From NCBI RefSeq assembly GCF_036321535.1, contig NC_087436.1, positions 1 through 64,000 of the forward strand: a stretch of DNA of 64,000 bases, given 5' to 3'. Positions 13,373 through 44,381 of this stretch are shown here, in pieces. Origin of the DNA: Camelus dromedarius. Its lineage: Eukaryota. The notes under the pieces are model-generated. The model searched no databases. It was not told where the DNA came from and saw only the letters and a list, made by a program, of their open reading frames with translations. The position numbers were made by a program, and so were the translations under genes. Positions within the stretch are counted from its first letter, which is position 1. The number at the start of each line of letters is the position of its first letter.

Positions 13373-13605
13373 CTGCAACGAACTGCTCGTACTCAATGTC
13401 AGGGATGTTTCTGTTGAGACTTGGGAGGTCAAAGGAGTCGGACCAGGGATCGGGGCTCTGCCAGTGGTAGAGGTGGCCCCAAGGGAATAGCACCAGTACC
13501 GGCTCCTCCATCTTCAGCAGGGTCTTCAGGAGGAAGGCAATGTGGATGCAGACGTTCCTAAGGAGGTTGAAGCCCTCTGGAGGGTTGAAGTCACACAGAA
13601 GGTAC
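13373..13605 (-). pseudogene. POFUT2: POFUT2 (protein O-fucosyltransferase 2) exon 2, degenerate duplicated copy
   Basis: Reads [77 protein letters not shown] against recalled human [83 protein letters not shown]. Acceptor ccag and donor gtgagg are intact; 6-codon in-frame deletion. Confidence 0.95.
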
Positions 13606-13873
13606 CTGGCTGGGAGCAAAGGAGAGCGGGTCTTCAGGGCCAGGCCTCTGCACAGGAATCCCGGCTTAGATAGAACAGATACAACGGGAATCCCTGCACA
13701 GCCCATGGCCTAGACTCCAGACACATTCAGCAGCTTCTGGTTTGTAAAGTGGAGGCACTGCCCACCCATCTCCATGTGGCCAATTACTTCAAGTCCGGGA
13801 GCAGTTGCGGAAGACATCTTGGCATCCGTCTAACACCACTAAGCACCCGACTAGCATCTGAGCACCCGTTCTC

Positions 13874-14346: not shown

Positions 14347-14759
14347 CCTATCCAAGGCGAGACTCTTCTACACAAGAGCCAGGCAAGGGTCCTGGATTCT
14401 GTAATGAGTTACCGCCAAAACACCCCTCCCTTCTCTGTGTGTTTCTCACAAGCTCCATTACTGCAGATGAGGATGTAATCCTCAACTGGGGCCTCTAATC
14501 CCAGAAGACTGCTAACTTCAAGAGGGAGGGTCCCATCTACCATCCCTACACCCCGCATAGTTTATTTTGAGTCAAGCCCTAGATAACTGCTTATCGGCAC
14601 TGACCCTTGTGTCTTTTTCCTGAGGTTGACTGAAGGAACCAACATCTGGATGGAACTGAAATTTCCCTGCAGATAAACAAGGCTGATAAGCCACCCCATT
14701 CCAACATCTGATTCTGGGGCTCTTCAAAACCCGGGTAAGGCCCCGCTTCATCTAAGATG

Positions 14760-15640
14760 GGTCCTCCGCCTGCCCTTTCCGGGGGGTTCTGGGAGGCCGC
14801 GGCCACCAAGGGCGACCCAGACTCGCGGCCCCAGCCCCATTGCCTGAGGGGGAGGAAAGCTTGAGGCTGTGCCCAAGCCCTGCCCCGCCCCGCCCCAACA
14901 CGCTCCCCGGCACCACAGCCCTCCCCGGCCACCGCCCCAACCCCGATCCCACCCCGGTTCATGTCCGCCGGCCCCGCCGACGGCGCGGACGTACGTTTAC
15001 CGTCTGTGGGACGCCGCCCCAGACAGGATGTCGGCCGCCGACTGACCAGGCCAGAACTAGTCGCCCGGCCGAGCAAGCCGCCATCCCCAGCAGCAAGCAC
15101 CGCCATGGTCCCGGGCAGCTGCACACTTCCGGAGCCCGCTACCCGCCCCAGAAGCGCACGCCGGCCCGCGCAGAGCGTGGCGCCTGTAACCATGGCAACT
15201 CCGCGGGACCCTCCCCTAGCGCTTGCGTCGTGCGTCCTCCCGAGTCTAGTTGTGCGAGGGCAGAACTTGCAGAGCCAATGGGAGCCAGGGCGCAGCCAGG
15301 ACGGGGGTGGGGGGAGGCTTATGGGACAGCTGGGCGGGGCCGGGGAGGGCAGGGCCGCCCGGAAGTCCTGACCTGCAGGTGGCGCCGGCCGGAGGCTGGG
15401 GCGTTGCTGCCACCAGTGGGCGGGGCAGCGGGGCAGCGGGGCGGGGGCACCCTCACCTGTCCGTGTGTGGGGATCAGCCTGGGCTCCGTGGCCTCCGCTT
15501 GCACCGGACGTGGACCCAGGCTACCGGTGGGCAAGATAGAGGACTGAGCCCAGGCACGCACGGCTGGCCAGGTAGGGCACCTGAAGTGCAGATCCGCCAG
15601 GCCCGCTGCCGGCCTTGAATACGCGCTGCTAGGCAGTTTC
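14760..15640. promoter_or_regulatory. CpG island / bidirectional-type promoter of the POFUT2 duplicate
   Basis: Dense CpG. ETS ACTTCCGG at 15125-15132 and CCGGAAGT at 15359-15366 in opposite orientations, RFX X-box GTAACCATGGCAAC at 15186-15199, CCAAT at 15275-15279, several GC boxes. Confidence 0.8.
15001..15106 (-). pseudogene. POFUT2: POFUT2 exon 1 coding part, degenerate
   Basis: Minus strand gaccATGGCG...TAG TTC TGG CCT GGT CAG TCG GCG GCC GAC ATC CTG TCT GGG GCG GCG TCC CAC AGA CG|gtaaac gives [19 protein letters not shown] (human [20 protein letters not shown]). Stop at 15057-15059; deletions in the signal peptide shift the frame. Confidence 0.93.
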
Positions 15641-17869
15641 CAAGAAGACGGGATCTGTCATAAGAGGGGAGGTAGGGCTTGGGTACCAGATGTCGGGTTG
15701 GGTGCAGTCTCACAGGAGAGCCACGGTGAGAGGGCGCAGAGCGGCCCCTGTGTTGGCGGGGCTAAGAGTTTGGGGTATAGGGTCGGGGTGGTGTGTGCCT
15801 TTCTCCGTGGTCTCCTCACTCCAGAGCAAGGGGCTCTGCTTCCCCCCTCCCCTCACTGCACTCCCTGCCTTCCCCAGCACCACCTGGGGTGTGGTCATGT
15901 CGAGGCAGGGAAGGCCCAGGGAAGGGGCTCATTCAGGGGCAGGGGCCACTCTGCAGGGATGCTGGACCTGACAGCAATGCAGTGCTTCGGAACTCCCCTG
16001 GGCTGGGTTTCTAACCAGTGGGATGGAAGGGCCTTTCCTTCCTGGGGTGCATTTGGGGGAACTAGATACGTCATGAATGTCAGCCCTGAAAATGGAGGCT
16101 GTGCTACATCCATTCTTGGAAAGAAAAATCAGGCCCTTCCAGCCCAGGTGACTCAGAAAGTCAGTCAGCAATGTTCGGGGTCCCCAGTTTAGGCTTTCAA
16201 ATAGAGCTGAGCGGCTCAGGAGGCCAGATCCCTGTCCGTGGCTCCAGGAGTAGGCTTTCTGCTGGGGGACAGGATCCTCACAAACACCTGTGTCTTTGTG
16301 GGTCACTCCCCTCTGACAAGCTGGGAGGCAGGGTGCAGTTGTGGGAAATCGTGTTTCCATGAGGAGAGGGCCACCAAGTGGTGGGGGCACAGGAGACAGT
16401 GAGAAAGAGTCCCGCAGCCTTTCTGGAATCAAAAAACTGGCAAATGTGAAAAAGTGCATAATTTGTTTTATTGAACAGGCTGCTTATGTACGTTTGGAGG
16501 GCCAGGTTCAAGGACTCTGCATCCCTCCAGGACAATAGCCTCAAGAGAAGAACAGACAGAGCAGGAAGAGATGTGGGGTTTCTCCCAGGAATGAGGCAGA
16601 ACAGGGATTTCTGCAGATTTGCAAGGAGACCCCGACCGCTGAGCACCGGGTTACAACCCCACGTGACCCTTGTCGTGTTTGGCTTGGGCTCTGGGTCTGG
16701 CCTGATCATGTATTCTTCCAGCTGAGTTCCAGAAATTCAGAGGGTAGACTTAGAGAGGCTGCGTTTGGAACCCGGTGTGGAGACGGAGGGTCCTTTATCC
16801 TGAGTCCCCTCAGCCTAATCACTGTAGCTGAGTTCCAACACCACCCAGGCCCCCAGGGTGGCCGTGGAGGGAGAGCAAGCCTGGCAGGTGACCCAGGGGT
16901 CCCACTGCTGTGCCCCTCCCTTATCTTTGTTCCCTTTCACCCCGGAGGGTGTGATTGTCTCATGTCATGGTGACAAGCCATCTCTCTTCTCTGTCAGGTG
17001 GGATCCCCACCCCCGCTCAGCCTTCTTTCTGCATGGATGCTGAAGGACCAGGCTCACTTGAAGTTCTGAGTTTGAGCAGTAAGGTGGAAACAAAGAAACC
17101 AATGGAAACAAAGAAACAAGTCATTGTGGCAAAGCTCCCCACCACAGAGAAGCTGCCCTGAGTGGAAGGGAGGGTGTGGGCATGCCCATTTGTTTCGTGT
17201 CTCCCAGTGCTCTTCGCTTTCTTATTGCAGACCTGCATGGTTACAACAAAATGATCTGCAAAACTGAAAATATTTACTCTCTGGCTTTTACAGAAAAGGC
17301 TGACCAGCCTCTGGTTCCCGTACCGGTCAACTGATTGGAGTACCTTTCCAGTTTGGAAACATCTGGGCAGGCCCAGGTTTGCAAAATTCTTTAAGAGTAG
17401 TTATGGAGTTTTGCTTCTAAACATTTTTATGGCTCTATACTTCTGAGCTGAGGTTGTGCTGTGTAATTCTGAGCCGGGATTTTCTCAAACTGTTTCTTAT
17501 TTCTTATACCGGACACCCCTAAATTCCAAGGGGAATGGGATGTTAAGGAAGCCATGGAGTTTAGGAAAAAGATACAGATTTCATTTCCATTTAAGCATCG
17601 ATGTATCTCCATCCTAGGCAGTATCGGTTCTGTGGTATTGATAGGGGAACTAAATAGCAACCAAATTTATAGAAAATAGTGGGTCATTGGGTACACAAGT
17701 TCTTCTTTTCAACATTTTTGTAGTGTTTGTAGTTTAAGATGACCGTTCCTGAGAAACAGGCAGCCTCTTAGAATGAAATAGCATTTTCCCTGAACCATAC
17801 TCAATTTTTATTTCGTAGACAGCAGGAAGGGCAATCACACATCCAACACTTGGGGACCTCAAAGATAAA

Positions 17870-20345
17870 ACGTAACTTTCTGGGAGCACACTCCCCCCGT
17901 CTCCCTCTGCTCTTTTCACTGTCCCATTGTCCCTGAAGGCTCTTTTGTATCTTCTGCTCATGACTCCAGTAACTCTTCCTTCTCTTCCCTCAGCTGGTAA
18001 GTTTACTTTTCTACTTTGACCAAGCAAACTGAAGCCAACAGAAGAGAACTTTCACCAGCAACTCCCAGCACATCCGCTCGCCTTCTGATGTCTGTGACCT
18101 CACTCTCGCTGCCCCACCTCTTATTACAGGTGACATCGAAAGCCAGATCATCCAAAAGTCACCAGGGGGCCCATCCATACAATCTTCTCCGGGCTGTCAC
18201 TCCCACATCCATCCTCTCTGTCACTACCTCATCTATTTTGTTCTCCTGCTAGTTGGCTCCTATCAGTATATAAAAGTCCATCCTCTTAAAAGAAACAAAC
18301 AGCACTCCTTGACTCTAATTGGCCCCCACCAATTGCCACCCCATGTCTTTGCAGCAAATCTTTAATGAGTCGTTTAAACTCACTGTCTGCATATTCTCTT
18401 GAGCCATTCCCTTTGGCACCCACTCTGGCTTTCCCCCTGATCCCTCGCTCTATGGAAACTGCTCTGTCAAGGCCATCAGTGACCCCACGTTGCTAAATAT
18501 AGTGGTCAGTTTTTAGTCTTCATCATGCGTGGCCCTTTGGCAGCATTTGACCCAGCTCTTCCATTTCTCCTCCCCCGTGTTCCTGCTTCACTTGGCCTCC
18601 AGCCCATCGCTCTGCTTTCGATCCACTGGCTGGTCTTTTGCCAACGTCTCCTCTTTTTTCCAAATATTTACTGCGAATGTGCCTCGGAGTTGGGTCCTGG
18701 GTCTCTCCTCTATCTCACTGCTATACTTTTGGTGGAAGCAACCAGACTTGGAAATTGACATGCCATCAATTTCTCGATTTGTCCAAAACTCCCTGATTGG
18801 CCTTTTCCATTTGGAACTCTCTCCCTGATACTCATATTCTTTTTCTTTCATTCATCTTGCTTTCACATTCATACATATGTTCTACTGTGTAAATTACTTT
18901 TCCAAATTTTGAATCAGTCCATACATATCATGTGAAATGCTCAGATCTCTATTATTTCCACTAAGATGCTTATTCTACCTTAGAACCTTTCTGCATTTCT
19001 GTATTTATGTCAATAAAGTGAATAGTATTTCTACAAGCCTCATAGTTAAACAGTGTGTTTGTTTGGGGCTACTATGTAACATGAAATAATGATACATCAA
19101 CATAGTCCTTTTTCATTTAATTTTATGTAACACCAAGATGAGGTTTTTGCACTGAAGACTGTTTCATTGAAATTTTACCTACGTTATGGACAGTCAGTTT
19201 ATGTGAAAGCCCTCATTTCTCCCCTTTTCTGATATATTTTCCATTTGGCTATTATAACATATACCTTGGCATGAAATAAAATTCCAAATCCATTCACATA
19301 ATAAAATTAATACATTTAAATTATATTTTTTAATGTTAAAAAGAAAGAAAAAAAACCCCAGACTCCTCTACCTATTAGGCATTTCTGTGGCAATATCTAA
19401 TAGACTCCTTAATCATGACATTGAAGAACTGAGCTGATTCCAGCCCCTTTCCACCTGCTCAGCCCCATCTTGTCCCATCCCCTGTGGATGGAGAGGACAT
19501 CCATCCCATTTTCCAGGTCCAGATGTTGGAACCATGTTCTCTCTCTCTCTTTCTCTTACACACACACAGACAGCAAATCCAGCTTGTTAGAAAATTCTGG
19601 CTACTCTGAAATCATTAACCACATACTCTCTGTTCCCCACCCTCCTAGGAGCCACCTTCAACCCCTTGTTGGACACCAATTAGCCTACTTCTTCCATCTT
19701 TGCTTTTCTACAATCTCATCCACACAGAGTCAGAGGGAGCCTTTAAAAGCATACATTGAGGGGGTGGGTGTAGCTCAGTGATACAGTGCATGCTTAGCAT
19801 GCATGAGATCCTGGGTTCAAACTACAGCACCTTCACTAAAATAAATAAATTAACCTCCTCCCAAGAAAACTCAAAACAAAAGCATAAATTGGACATCACC
19901 CATCCCATCAAAACTCACTAAAAGGGTCACCATTCCATTAGGAGCCAAAGTCGTCCCAAAGTCTTCGAGGACCCGGCCTGCTCTGCCTCTCCGCCCACAC
20001 TCTCCCCACCACTCTGGGGGCCTCTGGCTCCGGCTCTTCCTTCTTCCTCCGGATCTATTCTGCTTCAAGTTCATTACTCCTTGAGATCTGCCAGGATTGC
20101 CTTATTCCCTCCTGCCTGCCTCCCACCCCACCACCATCACCTGAGTTTGCTCATATCACTCTTATTTTTCCCCAAGCTCTTGCTACCCCCATCATGTTGC
20201 CTGTTTTCTCTGCTAAAACTCTGAGCCCCCAGTGATGGGGAGTCGTGTCTATTTTGTTGACTAATAAAGCCCAAGAGCCTTGGGAATGGGTATAGTTACT
20301 AGATTCCCATAAGTAGTAGGAGCTTATACAGATTTGCTGAATGAA
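17870..20345 (+). mobile_element. LINE-2 (RT region to 3' end), interrupted by an AT-rich insert (~18830-19350) and a SINE
   Basis: ggaaactgctctgtcaagg...gttgctaaa...ggtcagttttt...gcagcatttgac is the L2 RT motif ETAL.KV..D...DLSAAFD; 3' end ttgctgaatgaa at ~20340. Confidence 0.75.
19759..19877 (+). mobile_element. tRNA-derived SINE (camelid Vic-1 type) with target-site duplication
   Basis: ggggtgggtgtagctcagtg...gcatgcttagcatgcatgagatcctgggttcaa (Pol III A/B boxes). TSD aaaagcatacattg 19745-19758 / aaaagcataaattg 19878-19891. Confidence 0.88.
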
Positions 20346-20598
20346 AGCAGAGGTCCTGGTCCAATTCGATGGAGCACTTCTGTGTCCTGCTCAAAGATTA
20401 ACTCTCCTTTCCTCCTGAGAGAGGGTGACCACTTCCTTGGTGATCAAAGGCAAGATCTATTTTCTTTATGCTGTTAACCTTAGGCGGGGAGACTGGGGGA
20501 TCTTCATTTATATTTTAAAATTTGATTCACTCTGCAGTTTGTCTCCTGTCTATGTATCCTTTTGAGAAACCATTTATGAGTGATCATTCTTCCATCAG

Positions 20599-23500
20599 AT
20601 TGAACAGGATCCAGGGGGAAGTACCAAGCCTGTCCCATCGGCCATCCTGTGTGTCATGTCCTGTGACCCAGTGGATGCTCAGCACGTAAGTGAACCAACA
20701 GGAGTGAGTGAAGTGATGGGAACATCTCATTATTGTGGTGGCTGCACTCTGTCCGATGCCTTGAGATTTGGGGAAGGGTTTACAACTGCGGAGGCGAGAT
20801 GTCAGGTCCTCTGTGCTCTTCCTGAGTGCCCTGGCCTTACCCATTCCCCCAGTCCCCTCTGGGCAGCCAAGCCCAGGAGCTGGGCCACCGGCGATTGTGC
20901 TGATCAATAATCCACCTCACCCAATGTCCGGGGGTAAGAGCGGCCAGCACAACTGTTTGTAGACTCTGAAGTCAGGTCCTTGGAGGAATTCCTCACTGAA
21001 CAATGTTTTGGACCTTTTATTTTTCTCTATAGCCTCCAGCTGAAGAAACAGATTGCCTTAGGTACATGAAAGGTGAGGACACCTACTATCCCCATGGAGC
21101 GCAGGTGGGGCTGGGAGTCTGCTGTTTGTACAGCCGGTGGGCTCGTGTTGCTTTGGGCATCCCTGTGCCTGAATTCCTGCAGTACACTCGGTGGTAAGAA
21201 CGGGGGTGCCTGGCAGGGAGGGAAGCGGGTCGGGGGACTGCACAGCTGGGGAGACGTTAACCTGGGGTGAGCGGGAGCCGGCTGATGCATGGAATCTCGG
21301 TGCAGGGAACTCTCCAAACTCAGAGAGGTTCCCACTCCCGCAGGGTCCCTTTGATCAGGGTGCTAGGCTGTCAGCACTGCAGGGTCCCTGTGAGGATCAT
21401 GGTGCCTTCAGGCAGTGGGAAGTGAGGGGTCCAGTGGCAATTAAATTAACTGTGCACCCAAAGCCAACCCCCGTCTCTTTCAGCCTGTTTCCTAATCTGC
21501 AAAACTGGAATGATGTTAACCATCCCGCAGGTTTGTTGATGGGCTGGGACACACTAGACTGCCAGGAGCTGGAATTCCTCTGTGCCCTGATTGTAATCCT
21601 TCCTTCACACTATTTACTCTCACAAGTTCAGTCTCTCTGTCTCTCTCATTCACTTGTAACTTTCTCTACTGCTCTGGTTTCATTTGATTCCCACCCTCCT
21701 CCCAATCCCCAGATGAGTGAAATTAATTTCTGTGTGTCAGTTCCAAATTCCCGGGAAAGATGCTCTGTCCCCTCTGGATTGGTTGTCCAACCCATCAGTT
21801 GCAGTCAGAGGAGTGAGTCCCTCTGTGACCAGAGGAGGGGCTCTGCCCAGCCCCCCAGCCACCACTGTGGGAGCACATAGCTCTCCGAGGAGGAGGTACT
21901 GGCTGTGACTTGGTGTCACTAAGTGTGAATTTATCTCTCCTCTTGCCCCACATTCATCCTCCTAAACAAAGATGAAAATTAAACACTCCCGAGATTTGTG
22001 TCATGGAACACTCAGGGTGGGGGCTAAGAGGGCTGGATTCCCTGCTGAGTGTAAGGGGCTACAGTGACTCGCCAACGAGAGCCTGTAAAGGAAACAGCAC
22101 CGGCCCCACTGGACATTAGGGTGCTAAGTCTGCGTGACATTGAGCCAGGCTTCTGACCACAGCTCAGGGGTCTGTTCTGACCGGTTAGTCTTTGAAACCA
22201 ACCAGCTTTGGATTCCTCAATCCCTCCCTGAGGTTTTACCTGAACCACGAGCTTCTGTATCTCTGAAGACAGATGATGAGGACCCTTCACGTAAGGCATT
22301 TGCACAGCCCTGTGCGGGAATTTGTGCTGCACGGTCTGCCCGGCGAGCTGACCAAAGTTCGTATTTTACTGATCTTAGAAATAGTCTGGTTTCCTGATGC
22401 ACTGTTTCACTGAACAAGCAACAGAAGCCACCTCTGGCTGATAAAAGCAAAAAAGGGACTTAATGAAAAGATACTGGGAGGGTGCATGGAGTGGCCCAGA
22501 CCAGAGCCGACCCGGGGGCCGTAGGAGATGTTGGGGAGCCCCAGGCACCAGGCTGCGCAGGGTGCTACCGGGCCCCCTGCTGCCCCAGCAGGGACCCCAC
22601 TCCTCCTGACACTCCACCTCACTGCAGGTTCATGTCCCGGCAGGGCCAGGTCACACTGAAGCCACCAGCACACACCTCAATGGGGGAGTTGGCCCCTTCT
22701 CAGCTGAGGGCGTGCCTGGTGTGGGGAGATGCCCAGTTAGAGGAAGGCGGTTCCCCTACTGTTCCGAGTTAATGCGCAAGTCAGTGTCCATCACTCAGGA
22801 GAGCCGGGCTGGTCGGACCTCATTGTGGTGACTAGGCCGTCTGAGTTCACGTATTACTTTTTAGGTTGGAAGGCCCAAGAGGGAGAAAAAGTGGAGGTTC
22901 TAGTACTTATTTTATATTTCCCATGTACCAGGTGCGGTAAGCAAGCCACTTCAGACAAGGCCCATAACAACCACATTAATAGGCCACGGAGAAAGTCATG
23001 CAGTCAGGCCTCTGCAGCCCCGAAACCCGTGTCCTCATCAGTTCCGTAGTTACCAGTGGAAGTTGTAGGGATTTATGGGACTGTGTGCTCCTGTGGGGGC
23101 TGGGATGTGTGTGTTTAAATCCACATCTTCAGAAACTCGGCCAGAACCACAGCCACTGATTGTCTGCATGGAGGCAGAGGAGGGGAGGCTTCCAGCCTCT
23201 GGTCCAGCTCGTGTGGAGCTCAGAAGTTGCTCCTTCTGTCCTGAAAACAACACCAGAGCTGAGGGAGCTGCAAACCCACTGCTCTTCTTAGATCCACAAG
23301 AAAACTGAGGGGGAAAGCTGCTCCCAACACAGAGAGGCAGCCGGGCAGGCTTGGAGAGTCACAGCTCCCAGGGCAGAACCCGCTTTTGTAAGAACCCCGG
23401 GGGCAGGCAGATTTAACAGGTCCCTGAGGCCAGCTGGAGGCTCAGCGTGGGGAAGTCCGAGTGTGACAACTCCAGGGGGCCAGTCAGAGGGGCCCCCTGC

Positions 23501-24683
23501 TCTTTTTCATGCATTTTACTTCCAGGACCGTTTCCTGTTCTCAGAGTGAAGATCATAGGAAAACTCCTCATGGTTCCTGCCAGGAAAGGAAAAAATAGCT
23601 CTATTGAAATACACCCAGAACATTCTCTTCCATTGTGGGTGGTTGTGTTTTGTTTTTTTTTTTTAATGAGAAATTATTTTCCCAGAGCCTAACCTACCTG
23701 GGGGAAGGGAAATACCTTCTGTGTCACCCAAATTGGGGTGGGGGAAAGAGACACACTTGTGGAGGTCACAGCTCAGGGCACAGGCTCAATGAGAACTAAT
23801 CACAGGACTACAGATGCCCTGCTCTGTCCCACTCCCCCAACACCTTACCTCCATTTCAGTAGGGCCCCTGTGTTATAACAGGAATAAAATTAAAAGAAGT
23901 AAATGTCTCAGGAGTGTCTAGGGAAAACCCAAAGACAGCGGGGAGATGGAAACAAGGACTCACGGGTGGCTTTAGCCTCTCGCACGAATAGCTGTAGCAA
24001 ACTACACACAGCCCAGCCCCAGTAGATAAACAGAAAACCTCACAGAAGAAACTATTTATTTTGGTTCTCTTACCCAGTGCATTCCATGGTGCATCCTCGC
24101 CTAGAATTGAGTGGAAGCAAGTCCATCTCAGAAGGGACATACCTGAAGAGAAATGGCTTTCCAGACTCTGAAGGGCAGAGAAAGCACCAGCCTGGGTTAG
24201 AGAAAGGTGAGGGGTGGGGTAGGGGGTGGGCTGCCTTCTTCCCCAAATAAGGAACCTTCCTGAGGCCAGCACAGTGGGAGGGAGGGCCATAGGGTGGAAG
24301 CAGCCAGACTTCTTCCTGAGAAGTGATAGGATGCCTCCAAGGGACCATTCAGATGCCCAAACTGTGTCCTGATGGTGGGAGCCAGTCGGTCTGCCTCAGA
24401 GCCCAGGACTGAGGTGGGCGCACAGCAGGCCGGTCTTACTTGGCCGGATCAATTTCACTTCTCCGAAACCCTGTGTAAAACATGAAGCGTGGACGACCTG
24501 GTGAGCACAGCTCTGCCCTCAAGACCGGTTTCAACTCCTCTCTTCCCAGAGAACAGCATCTCTGAGCCCGTCCTGGGTGACCTCACAGAGATCACCCTAG
24601 TGGCCCAGGCTAGTGACCGGGAACATGTACCTTCCTGCAGCCAACCCCAGACGTCCACTGATGCATCATATACTGGCAAAGAT
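20599..24683 (+). pseudogene. Candidate exon relics of an unidentified gene (20599-20685, 21033-21072, 22189-22290, 23526-23588, ~24467-24683)
   Basis: The first three have canonical AG/GT(A/G)AG sites and compatible phases (0-0, 0-1, 1-1), splicing into one open frame. The last two have one damaged site each, and the last has a TGA (likely ex-CGA). Confidence 0.5.
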
Positions 24684-24744
24684 GTGAGTTCCTGTGCATT
24701 GGTCTAACAGCAGAGACTGCCACAGGCCCAAGAGGTGGTGTGTG

Positions 24745-24917
24745 GGACAAGCAGGGGTGCAGGAGTGTACGCAGTGCAAAGGTGTAAATGGTGGCAGGGG
24801 TGCAGGGGCTGTGGAGGGTGCAGGCAGTTCAGGGGATGCGGGGGTGCAGGCAGTGCGGAAGGGCAGAGAGTGGCAGGGGTGCAGAGGTACAGGGAGTGTA
24901 GGGGTGCAGGAAGGTGC
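24745..24917 (+). repeat. Degenerate (GCAGGGGT)-type G-rich minisatellite
   Basis: Repeated gcaggggtgcagg / ggggtgcagg motifs. Confidence 0.8.
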
Positions 24918-25000
24918 TCCGGCACGTGGCCAGGGTCAGAAGGCAAGTGCACATCCTCGCAGTCAGCCTGACCCCGGGAGATTAGTGCAGTGGTCTGGGG

Positions 25001-27085
25001 TGGCGGAGGGGGCGGCGGCGGCGGCGGCGGCGGCGGTGGGTGGGAGGCTGCCCGGGCAAGCCGGTCGATTTCTTCTCTTCCCTGCAGCCTGGCCTGGGGG
25101 GGTGTTGGCCGCCGGAGATTCGCCAGATGTTGGACTCCAGGTAAGCTTGCTCCTGGGTGGTGGGGCGGTTAGGTCAGTGGGCGGTGGCAGCGGCAAGGGG
25201 GCGGAGCGGGGCTGCCCCTGGCGAACTGATGGAATAGCTGCCTTCTCCCGGCTGCCGGGCCTGGGAGCGGCCTCTGCTGCCCCAGGTCGCTGCACACACC
25301 TGTCCCACTCAGCAAGCTGAGTGGGGAGTGGAGGCGGTGTGGTTAAGGTGCAGGGCCCACGGGGATAGGGGGGCTGCCGCACGGAAGCCGGTCAATTCGC
25401 TCCGCTCTCCCCCGCGGCGGAGCCAGGGGCGGCTTCTGCTGCCGTAGAGGCGGGACGCCGGTCTCCAGGTGAGCTTGGTCCTGGGAGGCGGCGGCGGCGG
25501 CGGCGGCTGGGGGTTGGGGTCCGTTCCAGGGAGCTGCTCCATTTCTTCTCTCCCCCGCGGCCTGGCCTGGGGGCGACCTCTGCCGCCAGAGATTTGCCTG
25601 AGGTCCGACTCCAGGTGAGCTTGCTCCTGGGAGATGGGTGCGGTGCAGTCAGGGGGCTGGGATGGTGGTGGCTGCGGGGATAGGGAGGCTGCCCCGGGGG
25701 AGCTTGAGGATTAGCTCCCATGTCTGTGCCGCGTGGCCTGCAGGCGGCCTCTGCTGCGCCAGGTCCTGGGACAACCCTTTCCCACTTTGCCTGCTGGGGG
25801 CGGGAGGCAGGGTAGTCAGGGTGCACGGGTGGCGGGGGTCGGGGGCCTGCAGCGGGGGAGCGGGCACATTTGCTCCCATCTTCCCCGCGGCTTGTCCTGG
25901 GGGCGGTGTCTCTTGCCCTGGGTTAAGAGACACGTGTATCCTAGTCAGCCTGGCCCCAGGAGGCGGGCGTGTTACGCTGGGTGTGGTGGCAGCAGCGGCA
26001 GGTTTTCCCATGGAGCCGGTCCATTTGCTCCCATTTCTCCCCGTGGTTTGCCCTGGGGGCGGTCCCTGTTGTCCCTAGTTCGCCGGACGTCCATCTCCAG
26101 GTCAGCCTGCTCCCTAGAGGCGGCACCGTGAGGTCAGGGGGCAGGAGCGGTGGCTGCTGTGGGGGTAGGGGGCTGCCTTGGGGAGCTGGTGGATTGGCTC
26201 CCGTCTCCCCGATGGCCTGGTGTGGGAGTGGCCTCTCCTGCCTCAGATCACCAGACACACCTGTCCCATTTAGCCTGCTGGGGGAGGGGCGCCCTGGGAA
26301 GTGCCTTTAAAGTGTGGGGGAGGCGACGGCAGGCGTAGAGGACCTGCAGCGCGGAGCCGGTCAATTTGCTCTCCTCTTCCCCACGGCCAAACCTGGGGGC
26401 GTACTCTGCTGCCCAAGAAGCCGGATGCCCGTCTCCAGGTCAGCTTGCTCCTGGGAGGCGGGCGCGATGCTGTCGAGGGGCAGAGGCAGCTGCGACGGCC
26501 GGCTGCCCCGCCTAATGGGGCCACTTCTTCTCCTCTCCCCTGACCTGGCCTGGGGACGGCCTCTCCCGCCCAAGATTAGCCTGAAACCCCACACCCGGTC
26601 AGGTTGCTCCTGGGAGGTGGGCGCGGTGACATCAAGGGTTGGAGAGGAGGGGGGCTGCCCCTGGCGGGCTGGAGGATAAGCTCCCATCTCTCTGGAGGCC
26701 TGACGTGGGGGTGGCATCTGCTGCCCCTCATTCCTGGGTCACCCTTCTCCAGGACATATTGCCCCGGGGGTGCTGTAGGCTGCGGGGGCGGCGGGTTGTT
26801 GGCGGGGGTATGGAGCTTGCCGCTTGGGAGCTGGTGGTTTAGATCCCATTTCCCCCGCAGCTTGGCCTGGGGGCAGCCTCTGTTGCCCCAGGTCGCAAAG
26901 CACTGTTTCCCTGACAGCTTAACCACCGGAAGTGGGCAGGATGTGCTGAGGGGGCGGAGGCAGCCGCCAAGGCAGCGACGGAGGGGGCTGTCCCTGGCCA
27001 GCCGGTCAATTTGTTCCCATCTCAACATTTGCTGTCCCAGTTTCGCAGGACGCCCTTCTCCAGTTTATCCTTCTCCTGGGAGGTA
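25001..27085 (+). repeat. GC-rich tandem array, ~13 degenerate ~160-bp monomers with 3-mer higher-order structure and two (GGC)n tracts
   Basis: Anchor motif (gagccggtcaatttgctccc / gagctggtggattagctccc) at ~25059, 25224, 25386, 25531, 25700, 25858, 26013, 26183, 26354, 26515, 26666, 26828, 26999. Shared ggcctgggggcg and ctccaggt(g/c/a)agcttgctcctgggagg motifs. Confidence 0.9.
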
Positions 27086-28489
27086 GGCTCAGTGCATGCA
27101 GCCCAAGGTCTGGGCTCTCCCCTGGGGAGGGGCAGAACGCTCTTCTTCTTCTTTGTCTTTATTCTTCAGCAAAGTGGTTACTGGCCCCAATTCTTAATTC
27201 TGAGAAAGTGTAGCCTGTGTTACGGAGGAGCTGCTGGACAGTGAGGTTTCTGGGTGGGTTTTCATATCAGCTGATGCCCCAGGCAGGCAGGAAATGTATT
27301 GCTTAGAGCTTCTTAGTCTGGAGTTGGGGGATGGCCCCGCCATCCTCACCATGCTTTTTAAAAATGTGTTACTCCCCTCTTTTTCCTAGGTGACATTTTA
27401 GGTTATTGGGTCCCAGATTGCTGGCACACTCATCCCTGTTCTCAAACATCTTTTAAACTTGGGTGAAGTGATAAGTTGGGGAAGAAGATGATTTACTGAA
27501 AGGTAAGAATACTTAAATTTGCATTAAAGCTACATTCTGTCAATCTTTCTCAAATGATTTTTCTCTGATTCTAAATCCATGACCTAGTGAATGTTGTACT
27601 CCTGTGTAAATCATTGATCTTCACATCACACTTGTTGAGTGGTCAACGAGATTTGTTATTTAGATTATTCCTGAAAGGAAAAGCTCAGGCTTTTGAGAAT
27701 TCCTTGTCTGATGTCACCCAGGCAGTCACAGTAGAAGACAGAGCTGATATAAAAATCCCTCACCTGCCTGAACTGCAAAGCTTCTGGGATTACTGATCCC
27801 TGAAATGCAGGTGACTCTTGATGATAATCTGGGGGATGGTTTATATGATCAGATTCTTCCAGTCCTGTAAATGGGTTCCGTGGCCCCAGCCCCGGGAGAG
27901 CTGGTCATAAGGGCCATATCGTGAGGGGTGGGATGGGAAGGCAAGGTCTAAGAGCTGGCATCACTGAGATTCCACACTCGCTAAACACAGACCCCAGAGC
28001 CTAATTGTTGTCAGGTTCTGTTCTGGATTTGAGAGTGTGTTCAGACATGATTCTTGCCCTTCAGGGGTCACTGCCTGGGTGGAAGTAACCTTTACATAAA
28101 TCTGGGGAGGATGACAATTAAGTAGATGGGCTGTTATGATTCTCAGTGTGCCCAGGCTCGCTCTTCCAGGCACTCGTGGGACTAACGAGAGTCATGTTAT
28201 TCACTCATACACTGATTTATTACCCTTGAATTGATCATTTGTCCCACAGTAAGTGAAACAAGCGATGAGGAACCTGAGTTTTGTCCCCTTTCCTAGCACT
28301 GATTGTATCTGTCAGTCAGGCGCCCTGCGTATGCATTGTGAAATGGTGGTATTTCTTGCCCAATGGGACTGCACTGTCAGTTCTGAGAATCAGGGGAGAC
28401 ACGTGGGTAGGACAGCACACTGACACATATGGCACCCCCCCCACCCCATGAGACAGCATTGTCGATGCTTAGGTGACCCGATGTAGACC

Positions 28490-28659
28490 GCGGTGCTAAA
28501 TCTGAGCATGTTTAGTGATCTTGGTGGCTATGAAAATACAGACTGCCGGTCCCTAATTCTGGAGACTCTGAGGGTGTGCACCCCAGAATTCTGCATTTTA
28601 AGAAGCACTTTAACTAATTCTGATGAAGATGATCTGAGTGTCCCACTGAGAAACACTGG
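28490..28659. mobile_element. MER5-like hAT DNA transposon
   Basis: aaaatacagactgccggtccc...gaattctgcattttaagaagcac...aattctgatg...ctgagaaacactgg. Confidence 0.6.
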
Positions 28660-28900
28660 TGTGCGATGCACCAGTATTGAGGATTCTCAGGGAGCGATGT
28701 TTTTTCAGGATGGTCCAAGGGCCCTCACGAGACTTTTGCCTTGGGTGTAATTGTATGTGTTCGAAAGTGATGTCTCTCACTTCCAGTGCTTGTCAGCATG
28801 CTCTGTGCAGGGATTTGCTCTCAGCAGATATCAAAAACTATAAGTCTTCAGGTCACCGAGCTAGAGTGTGGGCGATCTTTTATTTTGGTTTTCTTTATTG

Positions 28901-29290
28901 CAATGCGGAGTCTCCCGAGAAGAGATTCAGACTGAACAGCTTTGTGTCGGACTTTGGAAGACCGCTGGTGCCCAAGGGGTTCTCTGGCAGCACAATGACG
29001 AATCTAGGTCCCTCTTTCACTGCTACGTCAATGAAGTGGACCGCATGGACAAGGCCAAAGCTGGTATCCCAACCATAGCCCTTGACAGTGATGTTCGGCT
29101 CCAGGAAGCCATCAGATGCAGCAGGTGGCCAGAGAAGGAGCCTAACGGGCTCATGAAATGTGACACCCCCAGCTTCATCAACACGGACCAGAACTCTTCC
29201 TTTGGGGAAGATGATCTCCTGATTTTGGAACCACCGATTGTTCTAGAAAATAAGCCAGTTGCCCAGACCTCACACAAAGACTTGAATTGG
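28901..29290 (+). pseudogene. MRAP2: MRAP2 (melanocortin-2 receptor accessory protein 2) terminal coding exon, degenerate; 3'UTR-like sequence to ~30820
   Basis: NAESPEKRFRLNSFVSDFGRPL, then a frameshift at ~28985, then QHNDESRSLFHCYVNEVDRMDKAK...ALDSDVRLQEAIR...GEDDLLILEPPIVLENKPVAQTSHKDLN; matches the recalled human MRAP2 C-terminus. Acceptor reads ttattg (AG lost) and the stop codon reads TGG. ATTAAA at 30746 and AATAAA at 30812. Confidence 0.95.
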
Positions 29291-31119
29291 AAATGTGCTT
29301 TGTCAAGTGTTTCTCTGAAGATGTGAAGTCTGTCTTTGTATGGCAGGAAGTCCCCTTTCACAAAATTGTATGTGTTTGTGTCTGAGAGAGAGAAATGGAG
29401 ACAGACAGAAAGACGGAGACAGAAGAGAGCCCCTCAGAAGAGAGCTAGTTAAGGTGAGTTTTTGTGCCTTAGTAAACATTTGGGGTTTTGGGGGGAACAA
29501 AGTATTTACACTGTCTCATTCTCCTCGTTGGAAACCTTGGCCCCGTCCTCAGTGTCAGCGGCCTTGAACGGGGTTGCCATGGTGCTTTTCATCTGGCGCT
29601 GCCACTTCCACGCTCTGCCTTTAGCACGTTGCTTTGCCTCCCAGGGCTGCCACCCTTTAAACTGTAAGGTGAGGAGTCTGGAGTAGATGATCCATCCCAG
29701 CTCTGCTGTTTTGCAAATTTCTGATTTCGTATTCGGATGAGGCTGGGATACACCCAGAGCAGCATAAACCAGGCCCTACCTCCTGTCTCTTGCTGGGGCA
29801 TCCCTCAGGTCTGTGCCTTCTACTCAAGCCTTTACTGAGCCCAGCTTTTGTCAGGAGCCCAAGTGCCTACCGGGATGGCAGGAGACCTGTCTCTCCTGGT
29901 CACGGTGGCAGACATTTCTATTGGTTGTGCTGAAACAGCTCTTCTGAGATCCTCCGGCCACCCTTGCTCCAACCTGAGGACAGACCTACCGTTCCTTTCC
30001 TAGGAGGAGGATCAATCCATGGTGCATTTTATGACAATCCTGTCCCCAGGAATGCACGGAAGGTTATCAGCTGAGTGAGGGGAAGTGCCTCTGTGTCTCT
30101 GTGTCCCTGTATCTCTGTCTGCTCACAGTGCCCTGCCACCGGCTACTGAACAAGAAAAGTGCTATTCACCATGCTGTGTCTTTTGCAGATGTGTAGGTGA
30201 TGGTCTTGTGGCTCATGTGTGGGCTTTGTGCTGGGATGGTGAAGGGCTTATAAATACCTCATCAACATGTATTCGAGATGGCCTGGTGCCACACAGACTT
30301 GATTCATGAAGGCATCAAGCCTGCACACTGGTTTGGAAACAACTTGGTTTTGATCAGTCACACTGCATGCATGACTCACTGCTGATCTCTGGGTGGTTTT
30401 TTCATTTTAGATTTATTCACCCAGTGTCTTGCTTAAGCTGAAAAATACATTTATTTCACTAGAATATTCTCAGATTCTTTGTTTTCACACATCCAGTTGT
30501 TTAATTCCTTTAAAAATCATTTTGTGTTTATAATGCCTCCTAATATCTATCATCTCTAGGTTCCCAGTGGCCTGAGCCATGCACCAGATTTGATGTAGGA
30601 ACTGTTCCACCAAAAGAAATCCCTTTGCCATAATATCTTTTGAGGAAAATATTATTCTTTAAGGCTCTAACAGTAAATCGTAGAACAAAGCATGGAACAT
30701 TTATTGTAGTTAATACATGTTCATGCAAAAAGAAATGATATTTTCATTAAACAATGTTGATTTTAATAACTTTTACTAATGTGAATATTATTACTCATAA
30801 TTTAAGTAACCAAATAAAACCACAGTTATTTATTATGAAGTTTGAAAACTATTTACACTGTCTCTCAATTAGAGGTAGCTTTATTAGAAGACTGAAGGGT
30901 ATTTAAAAGATGGAAAAATACCCATGATGACACCATCATTTTTATTAACTAAATATCAAGAACTGTGCAGGGTTAAGATTGAACCCTCTGCAAGCTCTCA
31001 AGTTAGCATGAGGTAGTTTGTGGATGCTGCCAGAAGACAGGAGACTCCCCCAGGTTCAGAGACAAAGAACTTCTTGCCAGCACAGCAGGCAGCTTGGGGT
31101 TCATGTTCATGTTGGTTCC

Positions 31120-33660: not shown

Positions 33661-35340
33661 CTTACATCCTGTTCTGCCAAATTTCCACCCATGTCTTTGG
33701 CCATCTCCAAAGCCACATTTTCTGAAGAAGTCTCTCTAGATCCCAGGTGAAAGGAATTTCTGTTTCATCTGTGCTCCAATCACATTTGATAATATTTGAT
33801 TACATTTATTCATATTTGGCTGGATGTACTTGTGTGATCTTTCCTGCCATATAGTAAATCTCTCAAGATTTGGAATCTTGACTTGGTTCCCTCTGTCTGC
33901 TGAGAAAACTAGTTCTATGCTTTGCAGGAGTGAGCCCTGCAGTAAGAGGTATCTGCAGCACACATCTAGCTCATTGCTTGCATATCGTCAAGGAATCCTG
34001 CCGATTTAGAATTGTTTATTGATTGTTGTCTCCAAGACGGCTCAGCCTTTTTTATTTCTATTGCTACTGCTGCAGTTTCAAAGGAAAATGGGCTAATTAT
34101 TTTCCAAATATCTAAACATACTGTAATTGAGCTGTGACGCAAATTATGTGCTGCTGTTTCTTAACAACCTGCTTAGTGTTCACAGGTACCTTCACTCATG
34201 GAACTTTTGGGAGAATGTCATATCCTCAGAGATAGCAATGCTGTCTTTGGCAACCTGAGCGGTAGTATCTGAACTCACTCCTGCTGTTTTTCCAGTGCCC
34301 CCTCTAGCACTCCTCCAGCCCTCCATGGGGGGCCTGCAGTTCTTCCCTCGAAAATCCTGTTGTTTCTCAGGAAGAATTCCCTATGAAACATATTCATGTC
34401 CTTCTTGTGGGGACATTCAGTCCAGAGACCTGACAGCAGGGGAAAATGTTTAGACTGCTTTTGGTAGAACGTAAATTCTTCCATACTTGTTAGAAGCAAA
34501 TCCAATGAGGAAACTGTGTTGGCATCTAACAAATCAGGATAAATGTCTGATGAGGAAGATCAGCTTCCCCATCCCACTCAGGCGTCATGTTGATGTGACG
34601 CTCACCTTGGCTAACATTTTCTCCTGTGAGCAACGTGAAGTTCAAGACGTTATGAATGGCTTTTTGTTTTTCTTCCTTAGTCTTTCCACATTCACTGTGT
34701 CTGGTGAGATTATATGAATCCTGCTTATTTTCAGCCCAGCACTAAGCTTTTTAAAAGGATCACGTGTTTAAAAGGCTAGTGGACAATTTGTTAGAAGATT
34801 GAAATCCTTAGACTTTGGTCCTAGAGTTGAATCTTGGTTACTGGTGAATGAGAATTCCCGTTAAAATTTTAAATTCAGTGATATAAAGTTTTAAAAATAG
34901 TTAAATATTAGTCAATTTCATTAAACACTACAGCAGTTATTTACTTTTAAGCCTGTCTCTGGGGCAATTTTGCAATGATTCCCTCCCTTTATTAATTCCC
35001 TCTTTATCAGAATCCTTGAGAGGTCCCTGTCATCATTGTCAGTATCATCATCATCATCACCATCATCATGGAACTGATTCCTCTGGGAGATTCTAGGAAA
35101 ATAAAGAGCTGGACGGGGTTATGTGCAGGTCAGTGTGTGCATATACAGTAAGAACAGTTGTCAGACATTAGATTCAAGATACCCATTCCATTTAGAGAAG
35201 AATGTGGTCATGAAATCCTGATGTGCTGAATGAAGGAAGCGATGGGAACAGGGTAGTCAATGGAAAGGAGGAGGAAGTGAGCGAAGCGGGGAGCATAGGT
35301 CCTTGGTTAGGTGATCAGCACATTGGTGAGAATGAGGGGA

Positions 35341-36110
35341 GTGTTATGGCAGAATCATGTCCCTCCCCGGCCACAGGGTAGCCACCTGTGACATGTTACT
35401 GTACATGGCAAAATGCATGACAGATATTTTAGGACAAAAATCTTAGAGGATTTCTGTCTTCTAAATTGTCTATCAGTTAGCATTTTAAACCCATGATACA
35501 TTATTAAAGATTAGTGCAGGGGGACAAATAAAAAGGATTCATATAATCTCACCAGACATACTGAATGTAGAAAGGCTAAGGAAGAAAAACAAAAAGTCAT
35601 TCATATGTGCCTTGAACCATAAAATGCCCATGAGAGGAAATGTTACACAAGGTGAGTGTCACAGCCACATTCATAATGCCTGAATGGGATGGGACAAGGG
35701 GATCCTGAGATGAGACAATAGGGCGAGTAGCCTGGATTGTCCAGGTGGGCTGAATGTAATCACAGGGGTCCTTGAAATGGAGGACATTTCCCAGCTGAGT
35801 TTAAAATCAGAGGGAGGTGTAGCCATAGAGCAATGTTCAGAAAGGCTGCTGACCATGAAAATGGAGGAAGTCGTGGGGCACAAGCTAAGGAAGGTGGGTG
35901 ACCTCTGGAAACTGGAAAAAAACAACAACAACAAGGAAACATTCTCTTCTAGACCCTCTAGAAGGAAGGAACCCTGCTGCTACCTTGAATTTAGCCCAAT
36001 GAGAACTGTGTTGGATCTCTGACCTCCACAGCCATAAGCTGATAAATCTGTGCTGGTTTAAGCTCTTAAGCTTATGGAAATTTCTTACATTGGTAAGAGG
36101 AAAATAACAT
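35341..36110 (+). mobile_element. MLT1D-like LTR interrupted by a ~280-bp non-LTR insert (~35415-35700)
   Basis: 5' part tgttatggcagaat...acctgtgacatgttactgtacatggcaaaa resumes at gatcctgagatg...cctggattgtccaggtgggc...aatgtaatcacaggggtcctt and ends aggaaataacata. Confidence 0.75.
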
Positions 36111-36427: not shown

Positions 36428-36783
36428 TGTGTGGACTGAATGTTTGCATCCCCTCAAAATCCATATGTCGAAACCCCATCTCCCAGGGTGATGGTATTGG
36501 GAGGTGGGGCCTTTGGGACGTGATTAGTAGGATAAAATGAGGTCATGAGAGTAGAGCCCTCATGAATGGGATTAGTGTTCTTATACAAGCCCCCAGAGTG
36601 CTTGCTTCTCTCTGCTCTCTGGGATATGAAGATATTGGGAAGACAGCCATCTTCGAGCTGGCAATCCTCTCAAGGATACATTGACCTTGAAAGTCTCAGC
36701 CTCCAAACCATAAGGAATATGCTGGTTGTTTAAGCCACCCGACCCACGGTAATTTGTTACAGCACCCCAGACTGACGAAGACA
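36428..36783 (+). mobile_element. MLT1A-like LTR
   Basis: tgtgtggactgaatgtttg...gtgatggtattgggaggtggggcctttggga...gttgtttaagccacc...gactgacgaagaca. Confidence 0.8.
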
Positions 36784-37780
36784 GTGGAGAATGCCTCTGA
36801 GTTTGGCACTGATTGCCTGGAGAATGCTGAAACCCAGGGAAGTGGGCAGCACAGACGTTTACTCATTTAATCCTGCCAACACAGTAGGAGATAGAGTCTA
36901 CATATTCCTCGCTACTTAAAAGGTAAGGAAAAAGAGGCACAAATAATAACAACGACAACAAAAACAACAATAATTTGTCCAAGATTCACACAGAACCCCC
37001 TGGAGGCAGAGTGAGAATTTATACTCAGGCAGGCTGGCCCCAGAGCCCCTGCTCATAACTAATAAGTCAGATCACCTTGCTTATGTGGATCAGTTTTTTT
37101 CAACTGTGATATGAGGGTACTGTGTCCAGTAACTTATAATTTCAAAATACTTCACTGTAACGGAATCATTAGTCACAGGCCTTACAAACCACAGAAACCT
37201 ACACATACAAAAATATCTCGTTAGGTCAAGATAACCAATAACGTTTTTAAATATTATACCTGCTGGGCCTTTGCAATAAAATGTCTTTTTATAATTCTGT
37301 CTGGCTACAGAATAACTTCATAATCCTGCATGTTGCTGGTAGCTCCCATGTTGGACAGCACGGGCCTAGAGATTTTAAATTACTTGCCCAGACTCGCCCA
37401 GGAAGCTCGTGGTGGGATCCGAGCTATAGTCTGGGACGTTTCCTTCCTATCCAACAAGTCCCTCATGGAAGTTTAGAAGCTTCTCCTTTGGTGCCCAGCT
37501 GTCTATCCGTACTTATAACATCTTGTCAGGTGTTCCAGCCTGCTCCTGAACATCAGCCAGAACCCACTTCTTCTCTATTTTGTCCAGGTAATACCTTCTA
37601 GCAACTTCCATTGCCTTCTTGGCATCAGTTCTTACCTGGAAGGGTAGTGGCTAGAGGTGGAAATGTGTCCACATGACAGGTTTTTCATAAACATAGCAGG
37701 AGTGGTCAAGAGAATAAAACGTCAGGAAGATGAGTAGAAGCAGGTCATTTAATATACCAAATGGGTACTTTCAATGTGTG

Positions 37781-38301
37781 TGTTTCCGAGTCCAGGCTTG
37801 TTCTGCTCGTGCATTACAGGCCAATAAATCAGGAGACCTGGTTTTGGGGGCAAGAAATAGCGACTTTAATTTGGAAAGCCAGCTGAGAAATGGTAGAATA
37901 ATGTCCTGGGGAACCATCACCCCAAGTCAGATTTCAGGCTCTTCTTATATTAAAAATGGGAAGTGGGAATGCTTGGTTGTTGCAAACTTGGTGTATGAAT
38001 TCTTTGTTGTTAGAATCCTTTGTTCTTGCAGCTCTTCACCTGGGTCACATCCGTGTAAACCTCCAACAAACAAATGTTGTTTTCTATTCTGTAACTTGTT
38101 ATCTTTATGTGAATAGAAAAGTGTTAATATCCTTCAAAGTCAGAGCCTTGAGAATAGGGTCTCCTGTATATTTCAGGCTCTAGGCAACATTGTTTTACAA
38201 AAGGTGCAGAACCAACAAGACTAAGCCTAGGAAACAGGGCACAGGGTTAAAGTCAAAGGAACAGATCTAATATGGAGTCAGATTTGTTCTTTCCTATTTC
38301 A
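37781..38301 (-). mobile_element. Solo ERV LTR (minus strand)
   Basis: TG...CA termini on the minus strand; full-length similarity to the copy at 38954-39436. Confidence 0.8.
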
Positions 38302-38953
38302 GTAGTGCCATGGAGAAGGCAGTTTGGGCAGCTTTTTGTAGGGTCCTGGAGGCTTTCTCTCTCAGCCTCTGTGTGCCTCTGTTGAAAACCCTTCAGAGCT
38401 ATCTGGCCTGCTGGAAAACCACTCCGCCTGTTTTGCCCTGAAGATGTGTTCTGTTTATAACTGATCTCTACTTCTTGGAAAACAACTCAATAAAAACTCA
38501 GTTGGTTTTCCACCAGCCATGGGCAGGGGTGAGGAATAGCACTTTATTATTTTATGAAAAAAAATAAAAGAAGTCTTAAAACAGCACTGGGCACATAGGA
38601 GAGAGTCAATAAATGCTTCCTGGCTGAAATCAAAAGTGATGGCTCAGTGATTCCATGGCTGCTTTATTTGCTGAGCTTGCTACTCCTTTGCTCCATTACA
38701 CATTTTTTTTAACTGAAAAAGAAATACATGCATGTGGTTAAAAAATTTCAAACAGAGCACAAAAATACACAAGTGAAAGAAGTTTTCCCTCATCCTCTCT
38801 TCTTTCAGCCCTCCCTGGAGATGCCACTGTTTACAAACCTTTGTGTGTTTTCCAGATATGCTATGCACATTCCGACCTATGTATGTAAATTCCTTTAAAA
38901 TATTACTTATTTTTAACTTAAAGGGATTTAAATCCTCATGTGTCTTCTGCCCT

Positions 38954-44252: not shown

Positions 44253-44381
44253 TTTTTGAGGGGGGTAAATAGGTTTATTTATTTGTTTCATTTTTTTTTT
44301 TAAATGAGGTACTGAGGATTCAACCCAGGACCTCATACATGCTAAGCATTTGCTCTACCACTGAACTGTACCCTCCTCCCC
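44253..44381 (-). mobile_element. tRNA-derived SINE (camelid Vic-1 type)
   Basis: Minus strand ggggaggagggtacagttcagtggtagagcaaatgcttagcatgtatgaggtcctgggttgaatcc. Confidence 0.85.

Follow-up and report, generated by a model that had tools for sequence, protein, structure and literature searches.

A tandem array in the dromedary genome was analyzed within a stretch of 64,000 nt (Camelus dromedarius, RefSeq assembly GCF_036321535.1, contig NC_087436.1, positions 1 to 64,000 of the forward strand; this whole stretch is referred to as the window). The array comprises 13 degenerate monomers of about 160 bp. Its unit is very probably a tandemly amplified piece of the CpG island at the 5′ end of FOXO3, as judged from back-translated proteins. 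The whole account, an old gene-derived tandem array that lies in a camelid multi-copy duplication and supplies alternative exons, is given a probability of roughly 0.7.

Structure of the array

The 13 plus-strand monomers were found from 25044 to ~27110 with an iterated profile (E 1e-21 to 1e-36), which detected no further monomers elsewhere in the 64 kb apart from a partial copy at 24956–25016. Start-to-start spacings were 164, 162, 147, 168, 158, 156, 170, 171, 159, 152, 162, and 171 bp, pairwise monomer identity was 52–79%, and the array spans 2.07–2.15 kb. A preliminary description, made by a model from the sequence and its open reading frames, had likewise counted 13 monomers at ~145–171 bp (147–171 bp in the profile). 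Monomer 13 lacks ~22 internal nt. The array and its left edge contain the following features:

25044..27110, plus strand: array of 13 degenerate ~160-bp monomers (iterated profile, alignment)
25044, 25208, 25370, 25517, 25685, 25843, 25999, 26169, 26340, 26499, 26651, 26813, 26984, plus strand: monomer starts
24956..25016, plus strand: partial monomer (3′ half) at the left edge of the array (profile E = 0.0018)
25002..25036, plus strand: (GGC)n tract of 11.7 copies, expanded within the tail of the partial monomer
25487..25507, plus strand: (GGC)7 tract in the tail of monomer 3, of variable length among paralogous gene models
24794..24910, plus strand: degenerate 8-bp G-rich tandem tract left of the array, with no match to the FOXO3-type loci described below

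The 7-mer autocorrelation peaked at lags of 160 (56), 320–340 (41), 480 (71), 640, 820, and 960 (57); the maximum across 200 order-3 Markov simulations was 39, compared with 71 observed at lag 480. Monomer pairs at distances that are multiples of three were on average 65.5% identical and other pairs 60.3% (permutation p = 0.00075). Similarity was strongest at lag 6 (68.0%, p = 0.00025) and was 64.8% at lag 3 (p = 0.02), and the excess at multiples of three together with the best lag of six suggests duplication of a trimer and then of a hexamer. The trimeric order proposed earlier was recovered only in part, and its three alternating monomer types were not. Under the earlier labels, A–C identity (65.4%) was no lower than A–A identity (64.9%), so types A and C are not separable, and only type B (monomers 2, 5, 8, and 11) was distinct. 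Monomer 12, formerly placed in type B, groups with monomer 6. Tandem Repeats Finder fails to detect the array. In a monomer tree, 0 of 10 branches had strong support. In a satellite higher-order repeat, copies of the higher-order unit are far more alike than the monomers within it; here the figures were 65.5% vs 60.3%, with 68.0% at lag 6. The higher order is real but faint, a fossil order that is not homogenised.

The array has a GC content of 0.67 and a G skew of +0.12. The observed/expected (o/e) ratio of CpG is 0.51 for the whole array, 0.72 in 25001–25500, and about 0.2 in the flanks, and that of CpA is 1.38; the CpG ratio of 0.51 and the raised CpA indicate a decaying CpG island. The G skew and CpG richness noted before therefore hold relative to the flanks, with the qualification that CpG is partly lost. 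No palindromic structure was found in the array (best minus-strand self-BLAST match only 22 nt), and in none of the 13 monomers was there a stable RNA fold beyond that of shuffles (z −1.58 to +1.45). The minus-strand peptide echo reported earlier is present and changes frame between units, as had been stated. Two coding candidates were rejected: a minus-strand coding repeat, because frames shift and the gene models are all on the plus strand, and a collagen-like exon repeat, because Gly-X-Y is absent.

Source of the repeat unit

A profile was built from one reading frame of 11 monomer stretches and searched against 1.84 billion proteins, yielding six matches; a widened profile matched nine proteins among 8000 scored candidates. 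Two of the matched proteins were near-copies of the window (96–97%). Four (P0139, P0142, P0143, and P0144) were off-frame translations of one conserved locus, mutually 90–96% identical at fixed codon positions. These FOXO3-type loci were compared with the array as back-translated proteins at fixed codon positions. P0142, P0143, and P0144 each matched exactly one collinear period of the array consensus (82, 85, and 79%, respectively), and in the core of the unit all four loci were 82–85% identical to it. The full alignment of P0139 ran into a spurious second period (77%) and was left out, which gave three clean alignments. Monomers scored 40–96 against the loci and shuffled controls at most 26–41; the array consensus scored 122–131, compared with 39–57 for the other CpG islands of the window. 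In tblastn of the four proteins against the array, best E values were 5e-7 to 9e-4, with controls at 0.06 or worse.

The locus was assigned from the sequence downstream of the unit. The FOXO Akt motif RPRSCTWP is printed for FOXO1 in passages of two papers (PMC7705703, PMC5247616). It was compatible with P0139 in frame shift 2 and with P0142 and P0143 in shift 1, each with a single compatible Met-Ala start from which the Akt-site Thr is residue 32. The fit of motif plus start was reached by 13, 57, and 55 of 2000 shuffles (P0139, P0142, and P0143, respectively) and by 0 of 141 other stored proteins. In this N-terminal frame the three loci agreed at 52 of 52 codons, 28 of them fixed to one residue; 60 wrong registers used as a control had a mean agreement of 85% and a maximum of 92%. 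Compared by eye with a 20-residue FOXO1 peptide, P0139 fitted at 16 positions and P0142 at 17, which points to a FOXO other than FOXO1. Thr at residue 32 behind a Met-Ala start is presumed here to denote FOXO3, according to the subfamily numbering. On the back-translated proteins, then, a single locus homologous to the unit leads into a FOXO N-terminus whose residue 32 is the Akt-site Thr, and the unit is placed ~360 to ~200 nt before the FOXO-type Met. Back-translation also gave a likely upstream exon–intron border in P0144 and a pyrimidine tract after the unit in P0142; the unit would lie in intron 1 of a spliced FOXO3 form.

The array had been introduced as an element of unknown origin, a view now replaced, since its unit matches one period of a single, conserved locus that precedes a FOXO3-type coding start. 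A near-nucleosomal period had also been suggested. As ~160 bp is the length of the source piece, a period set by nucleosomes appears superfluous, and this candidate was dropped.

Amplification, age, and origin of the splice donor

Similar short GC-rich words bound the match to the unit on both sides, and monomers open with these same words. A ~160-bp piece of the CpG island before the FOXO3 coding start would have been copied to a new site, where slippage or unequal crossing-over between these bounding direct repeats probably multiplied it into a head-to-tail series. A three-unit and then a six-unit block would have been re-duplicated, after which homogenisation ceased and the 13 units decayed.

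At donor position +4, three of the four FOXO3-type loci have T, the base of the fourth being ambiguous, and 9 of the 13 monomers as aligned have A; the type B units 2, 5, 8, and 11 have no GT at the donor. This pattern suggests that one early substitution made the A- and C-type units spliceable. A T-to-A change at +4 of a GT would have made a weak site usable as a 5′ splice donor, with acceptors provided by pyrimidine-rich stretches within the unit, and each A- or C-type unit would be a latent mini-exon, the B type having lost its GT.

Against a leave-one-out consensus, monomers were 23% diverged outside CpG and 42% in CpG, and 208 of 212 fixed positions were the same in alpaca models and the window, over six segments selected because they match; the array is therefore much older than the camel–alpaca split. 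It is probably also older than the capture of a fragment of MRAP2 that lies downstream of it (see below) and is 88% identical to outgroups. FOXO3 and MRAP2 are presumably both located on human 6q, which would agree with a block put together on a single ancestral chromosome.

Use of the array in gene models

Forty-five model proteins were mapped onto the window; they were picked by likeness to the exons of monomers 1, 3, and 4, so the counts are biased. Array exons are part of every one: monomer 1 contributes in 45, monomers 3–4 in 37, monomer 9 in 20, monomers 12–13 in 13, and monomer 7 in two. The MRAP2 piece is terminal in four of the 45. Model exon ends coincide with GT and AG in the window. 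The exons and the candidate start region were as follows:

25088..25140, plus strand: 53-nt exon in monomer 1 (pyrimidine tract and CAG acceptor, CCAG/GTAAGC donor; 45/45 models)
25423..25614, plus strand: exon across monomers 3–4 (acceptors 25423, 25427, and 25448; donor CCAG/GTGAGC in monomer 4; 37/45 models)
26079..26132, plus strand: exon in monomer 7 (2/45 models, alpaca)
26418..26438, plus strand: mini-exon of 21 nt within monomer 9, alternatively the beginning of a terminal exon that reads through (donor CCAG/GTCAGC; 20/45 models)
26918..27107, plus strand: exon across monomers 12–13 (donors 27082 and 27107; 13/45 models)
18088–18129, ~20599–20685, 21033–21192, ~21485–21529, 24077–24205, and 24549–24683, plus strand: up to six upstream exons (model mapping)
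27390..27463, plus strand: downstream exon after the array (pyrimidine tract and TAG acceptor)
14700..16200: CpG island with a perfect RFX-type X-box at 15186–15199 (by what we take to be the consensus); candidate promoter of the transcription unit

The donors of monomers 1, 4, and 9 fall at alignment column 103 and the acceptors of monomers 3, 7, and 9 at columns 81–82. The six upstream exons (18088..24683) are 95–100% identical in protein terms to most Camelus models. Six runs recorded as RNA (three studies) contain 0.69–0.75 of the sampled words of 24400–29500, possibly as DNA. From the gene models, real splicing of array exons in RNA is judged likely. The X-box in the 14.7–16.2 kb CpG island would be in keeping with a testis or cilia promoter that was taken over from a different gene.

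Three reading frames are used for the monomer-1 exon (in 4, 29, and 12 models), none of the 13 model or relative proteins contained a Pfam family, and there was no usable Atlas match (best 0.79 for P0098, none for P0140). For these reasons the products are read as probably non-coding RNA with spurious frames. The array would now supply alternative internal exons to a transcript that begins upstream, exists in many copies, and most likely does not code for protein. Among the roles suggested at the outset, a repeat-rich long non-coding RNA (lncRNA) domain agrees with these results, as array exons occur in 45 of 45 models that are probably non-coding (three frames, no Pfam family).

Duplicated block and related sequences

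When the array-coded part of one model was used as query, 10 matches were obtained among 1047 candidates, all camelid. Family members comprised at least 19 Bactrian locus ids on at least eight contigs, at least five dromedary and at least three wild-camel locus ids, and in alpaca at least four proteins on at least three contigs. These counts are lower bounds, the largest cluster having 84 members of which 15 were enumerated. The block is almost certainly multi-copy. Most Camelus models were 95–100% identical to the window and the MRAP2 pieces 92–96% identical to each other at fixed positions, which indicates a young burst in Camelus over an older radiation. The earlier suggestion of an old satellite-like multi-copy element at the centre of a duplicated block was borne out by monomer divergence, the 19 or more Bactrian loci, and the alpaca copies.

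28901..29290, plus strand: copy of the MRAP2 last exon that lacks the transmembrane MRAP domain; frameshift between 28973 and 28988

The MRAP2 piece begins 1.8 kb downstream of the array and in this copy has no AG before the exon start. Its nine best matches were duplicates without the MRAP domain, eight of them camelid, and the frameshift near its start is common to the duplicates. Eight duplicate rows including that of the window formed one clade (100/100) within a weakly supported artiodactyl group, with a stem of 0.16, three times the camel MRAP2 branch (0.052). Dromedary GenBank models of MRAP2 duplicates share the stretches 28331–28699, 35011–35121, and 36772–36872 with the window, so the duplicated block reaches at least 36.9 kb. 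The array, the MRAP2 last-exon fragment, and other pieces would have been joined into a block of 12 kb or more, dispersed to many chromosomes before the camel–alpaca split, and multiplied in a recent second burst in Camelus.

Three further matched proteins also contained monomers. P0138 is a tandem monomer pair, P0140 has one monomer forward and one reversed (scores 45–92 plus, 32–63 minus), and the units of P0141 group with monomers 7 and 8 (bootstrap 95 each). They lie on contigs of 2360, 975, and 1237 bases, respectively. A 23-base array motif had three metagenome-contig matches, all by chance (no monomer around them), and none in viral contigs; P0143 had no match to viral contigs.

Weighing of the explanations

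Several observations weigh against the account given here. The FOXO3-type loci were seen only as off-frame translations and not as DNA, and the reading of Thr32 as FOXO3 is an assumption of ours. Single monomers are 69–72% identical to these loci and 65.6% to each other over the same columns. The array flanks do not match the FOXO3-type flanks. The splicing is that of predicted gene models selected by their likeness to exons of the array, the models run past the GTs at column 103 in monomers 3 and 7, and strong donors are only modestly above chance, being equalled in 7, 113, and 13 of 500 shuffles at three cut-offs (113/500 at the middle one; 3 observed vs 0.6 expected, 13/500, at the strictest; matrix values assumed). 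P0138, P0140, and P0141 contain related arrays, so that the array may be older than the camelids and more widely distributed.

One competing reading takes the array as an inert passenger of segmental duplication, the gene models being splicing noise in read-through transcripts without selection. It shares the FOXO3 origin and differs only on function. The absence of a stable fold in all 13 monomers, the incoherent reading frames, and the lost MRAP2 acceptor of this copy agree with it, and it deserves serious consideration while falling short of even odds, as the same array exons recur in models of alpaca and three Camelus species and the copies examined carry the MRAP2 piece together with the array and its upstream exons. 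Alternatively, the array could mainly be a multiplied promoter, 13 copies of FOXO3 start-site DNA providing GC-rich starts when unmethylated. Its source lies within the FOXO3 5′ CpG island, one human FOXO3 mRNA presumably starts in the source segment, and CpG o/e stays at 0.72 at the left end. This is nevertheless a doubtful explanation: every one of the 45 models has its coding start before the array, another CpG island, containing an X-box, is located 9 kb upstream, and CpG has clearly decayed (CpA o/e 1.38). Under a further reading, an array-coded N-terminus fused to the MRAP2 cytoplasmic tail would make up a new protein family of camelids; this is suggested by the 4 of 45 models (Bactrian, dromedary, and two alpaca) that join array exons to an open MRAP2 frame and by the exon-start frameshift common to the duplicates. 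It is very improbable, given that the database lists open frames only and openness is thus biased, that the duplicate stem is 0.16 vs 0.052 for the camel MRAP2 branch, and that N-termini vary in frame and most models end before MRAP2. The lack of one conserved frame in the monomer-1 exon and of a Pfam family would also weigh against a fast-evolving, positively selected coding gene of the core-duplicon type.

Two readings concern origin and kinship. Homology alone has no direction, and a tree with monomers and FOXO3-type loci is unrooted and weak, so the FOXO3 locus might hold one captured monomer of an older repeat. This is barely credible, since the FOXO3-type piece is a single period, 90–96% identical among four loci, continuous with conserved downstream sequence, and without the +4 A common to most monomers. 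The array could also represent, in camelids, an old repeat of eutherians that is identical or related to human REP522 and that arose from the FOXO3 segment. The monomer divergence (23%/42%) vs 208/212 alpaca identity places the array far before the camel–alpaca split, and the inverted pair of P0140, the tandem pair of P0138, and the grouping of P0141 with monomers 7 and 8 are in line with this. Yet the array is non-palindromic (22 nt), no named non-camelid protein was among the matches, and no miRNA family such as miR-5701 scored in 24000–30000 with Rfam, which may not include miR-5701; this reading is considered unlikely.

If the preferred account of a FOXO3-derived array holds, it bears on several problems. 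Satellite-like repeats can seldom be followed back to an identified gene segment from which they arose, and here the source, the bounding repeats, and the donor-creating base are visible. The family appears to be an undescribed core-duplicon-like one in camelids, outside the primates in which such cores have mostly been studied. The very young Camelus burst will confuse annotation (‘MRAP2-like’ and ‘uncharacterized LOC’ models) and read mapping, and the monomer model can be used to test directly if human repeats at duplication hubs that are still unclassified also come from FOXO3. A broader and speculative proposal, held to be improbable, is that a piece of the FOXO3 promoter region became a small satellite early in placental mammals, bringing its own start-site DNA and splice sites and seeding hubs in more than one lineage (camelids, perhaps REP522-type primate regions). 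Captured gene fragments would then have been made transcribable and spliceable, and the satellite would be a gene-derived engine for new chimeric genes.

Other features of the window

A near-perfect palindrome occupies 1–2841 (arms 1–1379 and 1463–2841, 100% complementary, 83-nt spacer); it is a very young inverted duplication or an assembly artefact. Two old inverted repeats, at 37780–39437 and 34568–35693, have arms that are 77% and 76% alike. Of 79 frames of the window, Pfam matched one: an O-FucT fragment on the minus strand at 13356–13709 (E 3.4e-9), just left of the 14.7–16.2 kb CpG island and unrelated to the array, which we take to be a POFUT1-like processed piece. The region 39900–45500 contains a second CpG island as well as, from 44821 on, an interrupted reading frame, presumably the 5′ part of TRAPPC9, for which Pfam and PDB gave no confirming match. 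With Rfam, only two tRNA-like matches were found elsewhere in the window, at 19764–19835 (plus strand) and 44305–44375 (minus strand), probably tRNA-derived SINEs (short interspersed elements), and four chance matches near the array.

Comparison with known systems

No published description of a FOXO3-derived array or of the camelid family was found in a search outside which Repbase, Dfam, and most subscription papers lay. Passages on REP522 describe it as ~1.8 kb long, largely palindromic, and enriched at cancer-activated promoters (PMC4896275), as enriched in lncRNA exons (10.1101/189753), as present at BAGE, a duplicated region (PMC3560060), and as overlapped by miR-5701. Its sequence did not appear in passages of PMC6545021, PMC6925957, PMC11353194, and 10.1101/2021.12.09.471935, and the main text of PMC8524813 contained no occurrence. 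According to these passages, REP522 resembles the array in its association with lncRNA exons, promoters, and duplicated regions and may be of similar length, about 2 kb (~1.8 kb vs 2.07–2.15 kb); it is set apart, by description and not by sequence, in being largely palindromic, whereas the array runs head to tail.

FOXO3B is described, in part of one paper, as a human/gorilla processed copy inside a segmental duplication (PMC12058530). To that extent it is like the array, FOXO3-derived sequence within a duplication, but as there described it is a whole processed gene and not an amplified 160-bp non-coding piece. The alpaca satellites VpaSat01–20 have units of 1.8–8.5 kb and are accompanied by pseudogene-rich repeat blocks, according to passages of PMC13751797. 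Like the array they are camelid GC-rich repeats mixed with multi-copy gene fragments; unlike it they form large homogeneous arrays of 1.8–8.5 kb units, and the passages name neither MRAP2 nor a 160-bp unit. The VpaSat13 primers, one of 13 primer pairs and the one tested, had no match in the window at three mismatches, and array motifs were absent from the consensus sequences of the VpaSat supplement over the 400 letters of each that were compared.

The FOXO3 5′ CpG island itself shares one full, collinear period with the array (79–85% identical to the array consensus at fixed positions). There it is a single conserved copy, whereas the array has 13 decayed copies, a gained donor, and no adjoining FOXO3 coding sequence. 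As a block, the camelid family comes closest to the core duplicons of primate segmental duplications (NPIP, GOLGA, TBC1D3, LRRC37, and NBPF). Both have a GC-rich core, in the camelid block one that is probably transcribed, many dispersed copies (here at least 19 Bactrian locus ids on at least eight contigs, interspersed, and copies in three other camelids), gathered gene fragments, and chimeric models. The camelid block differs in that its core is a tandem array very probably derived from a gene promoter, not a protein-coding gene, and gives no indication of a single conserved frame.

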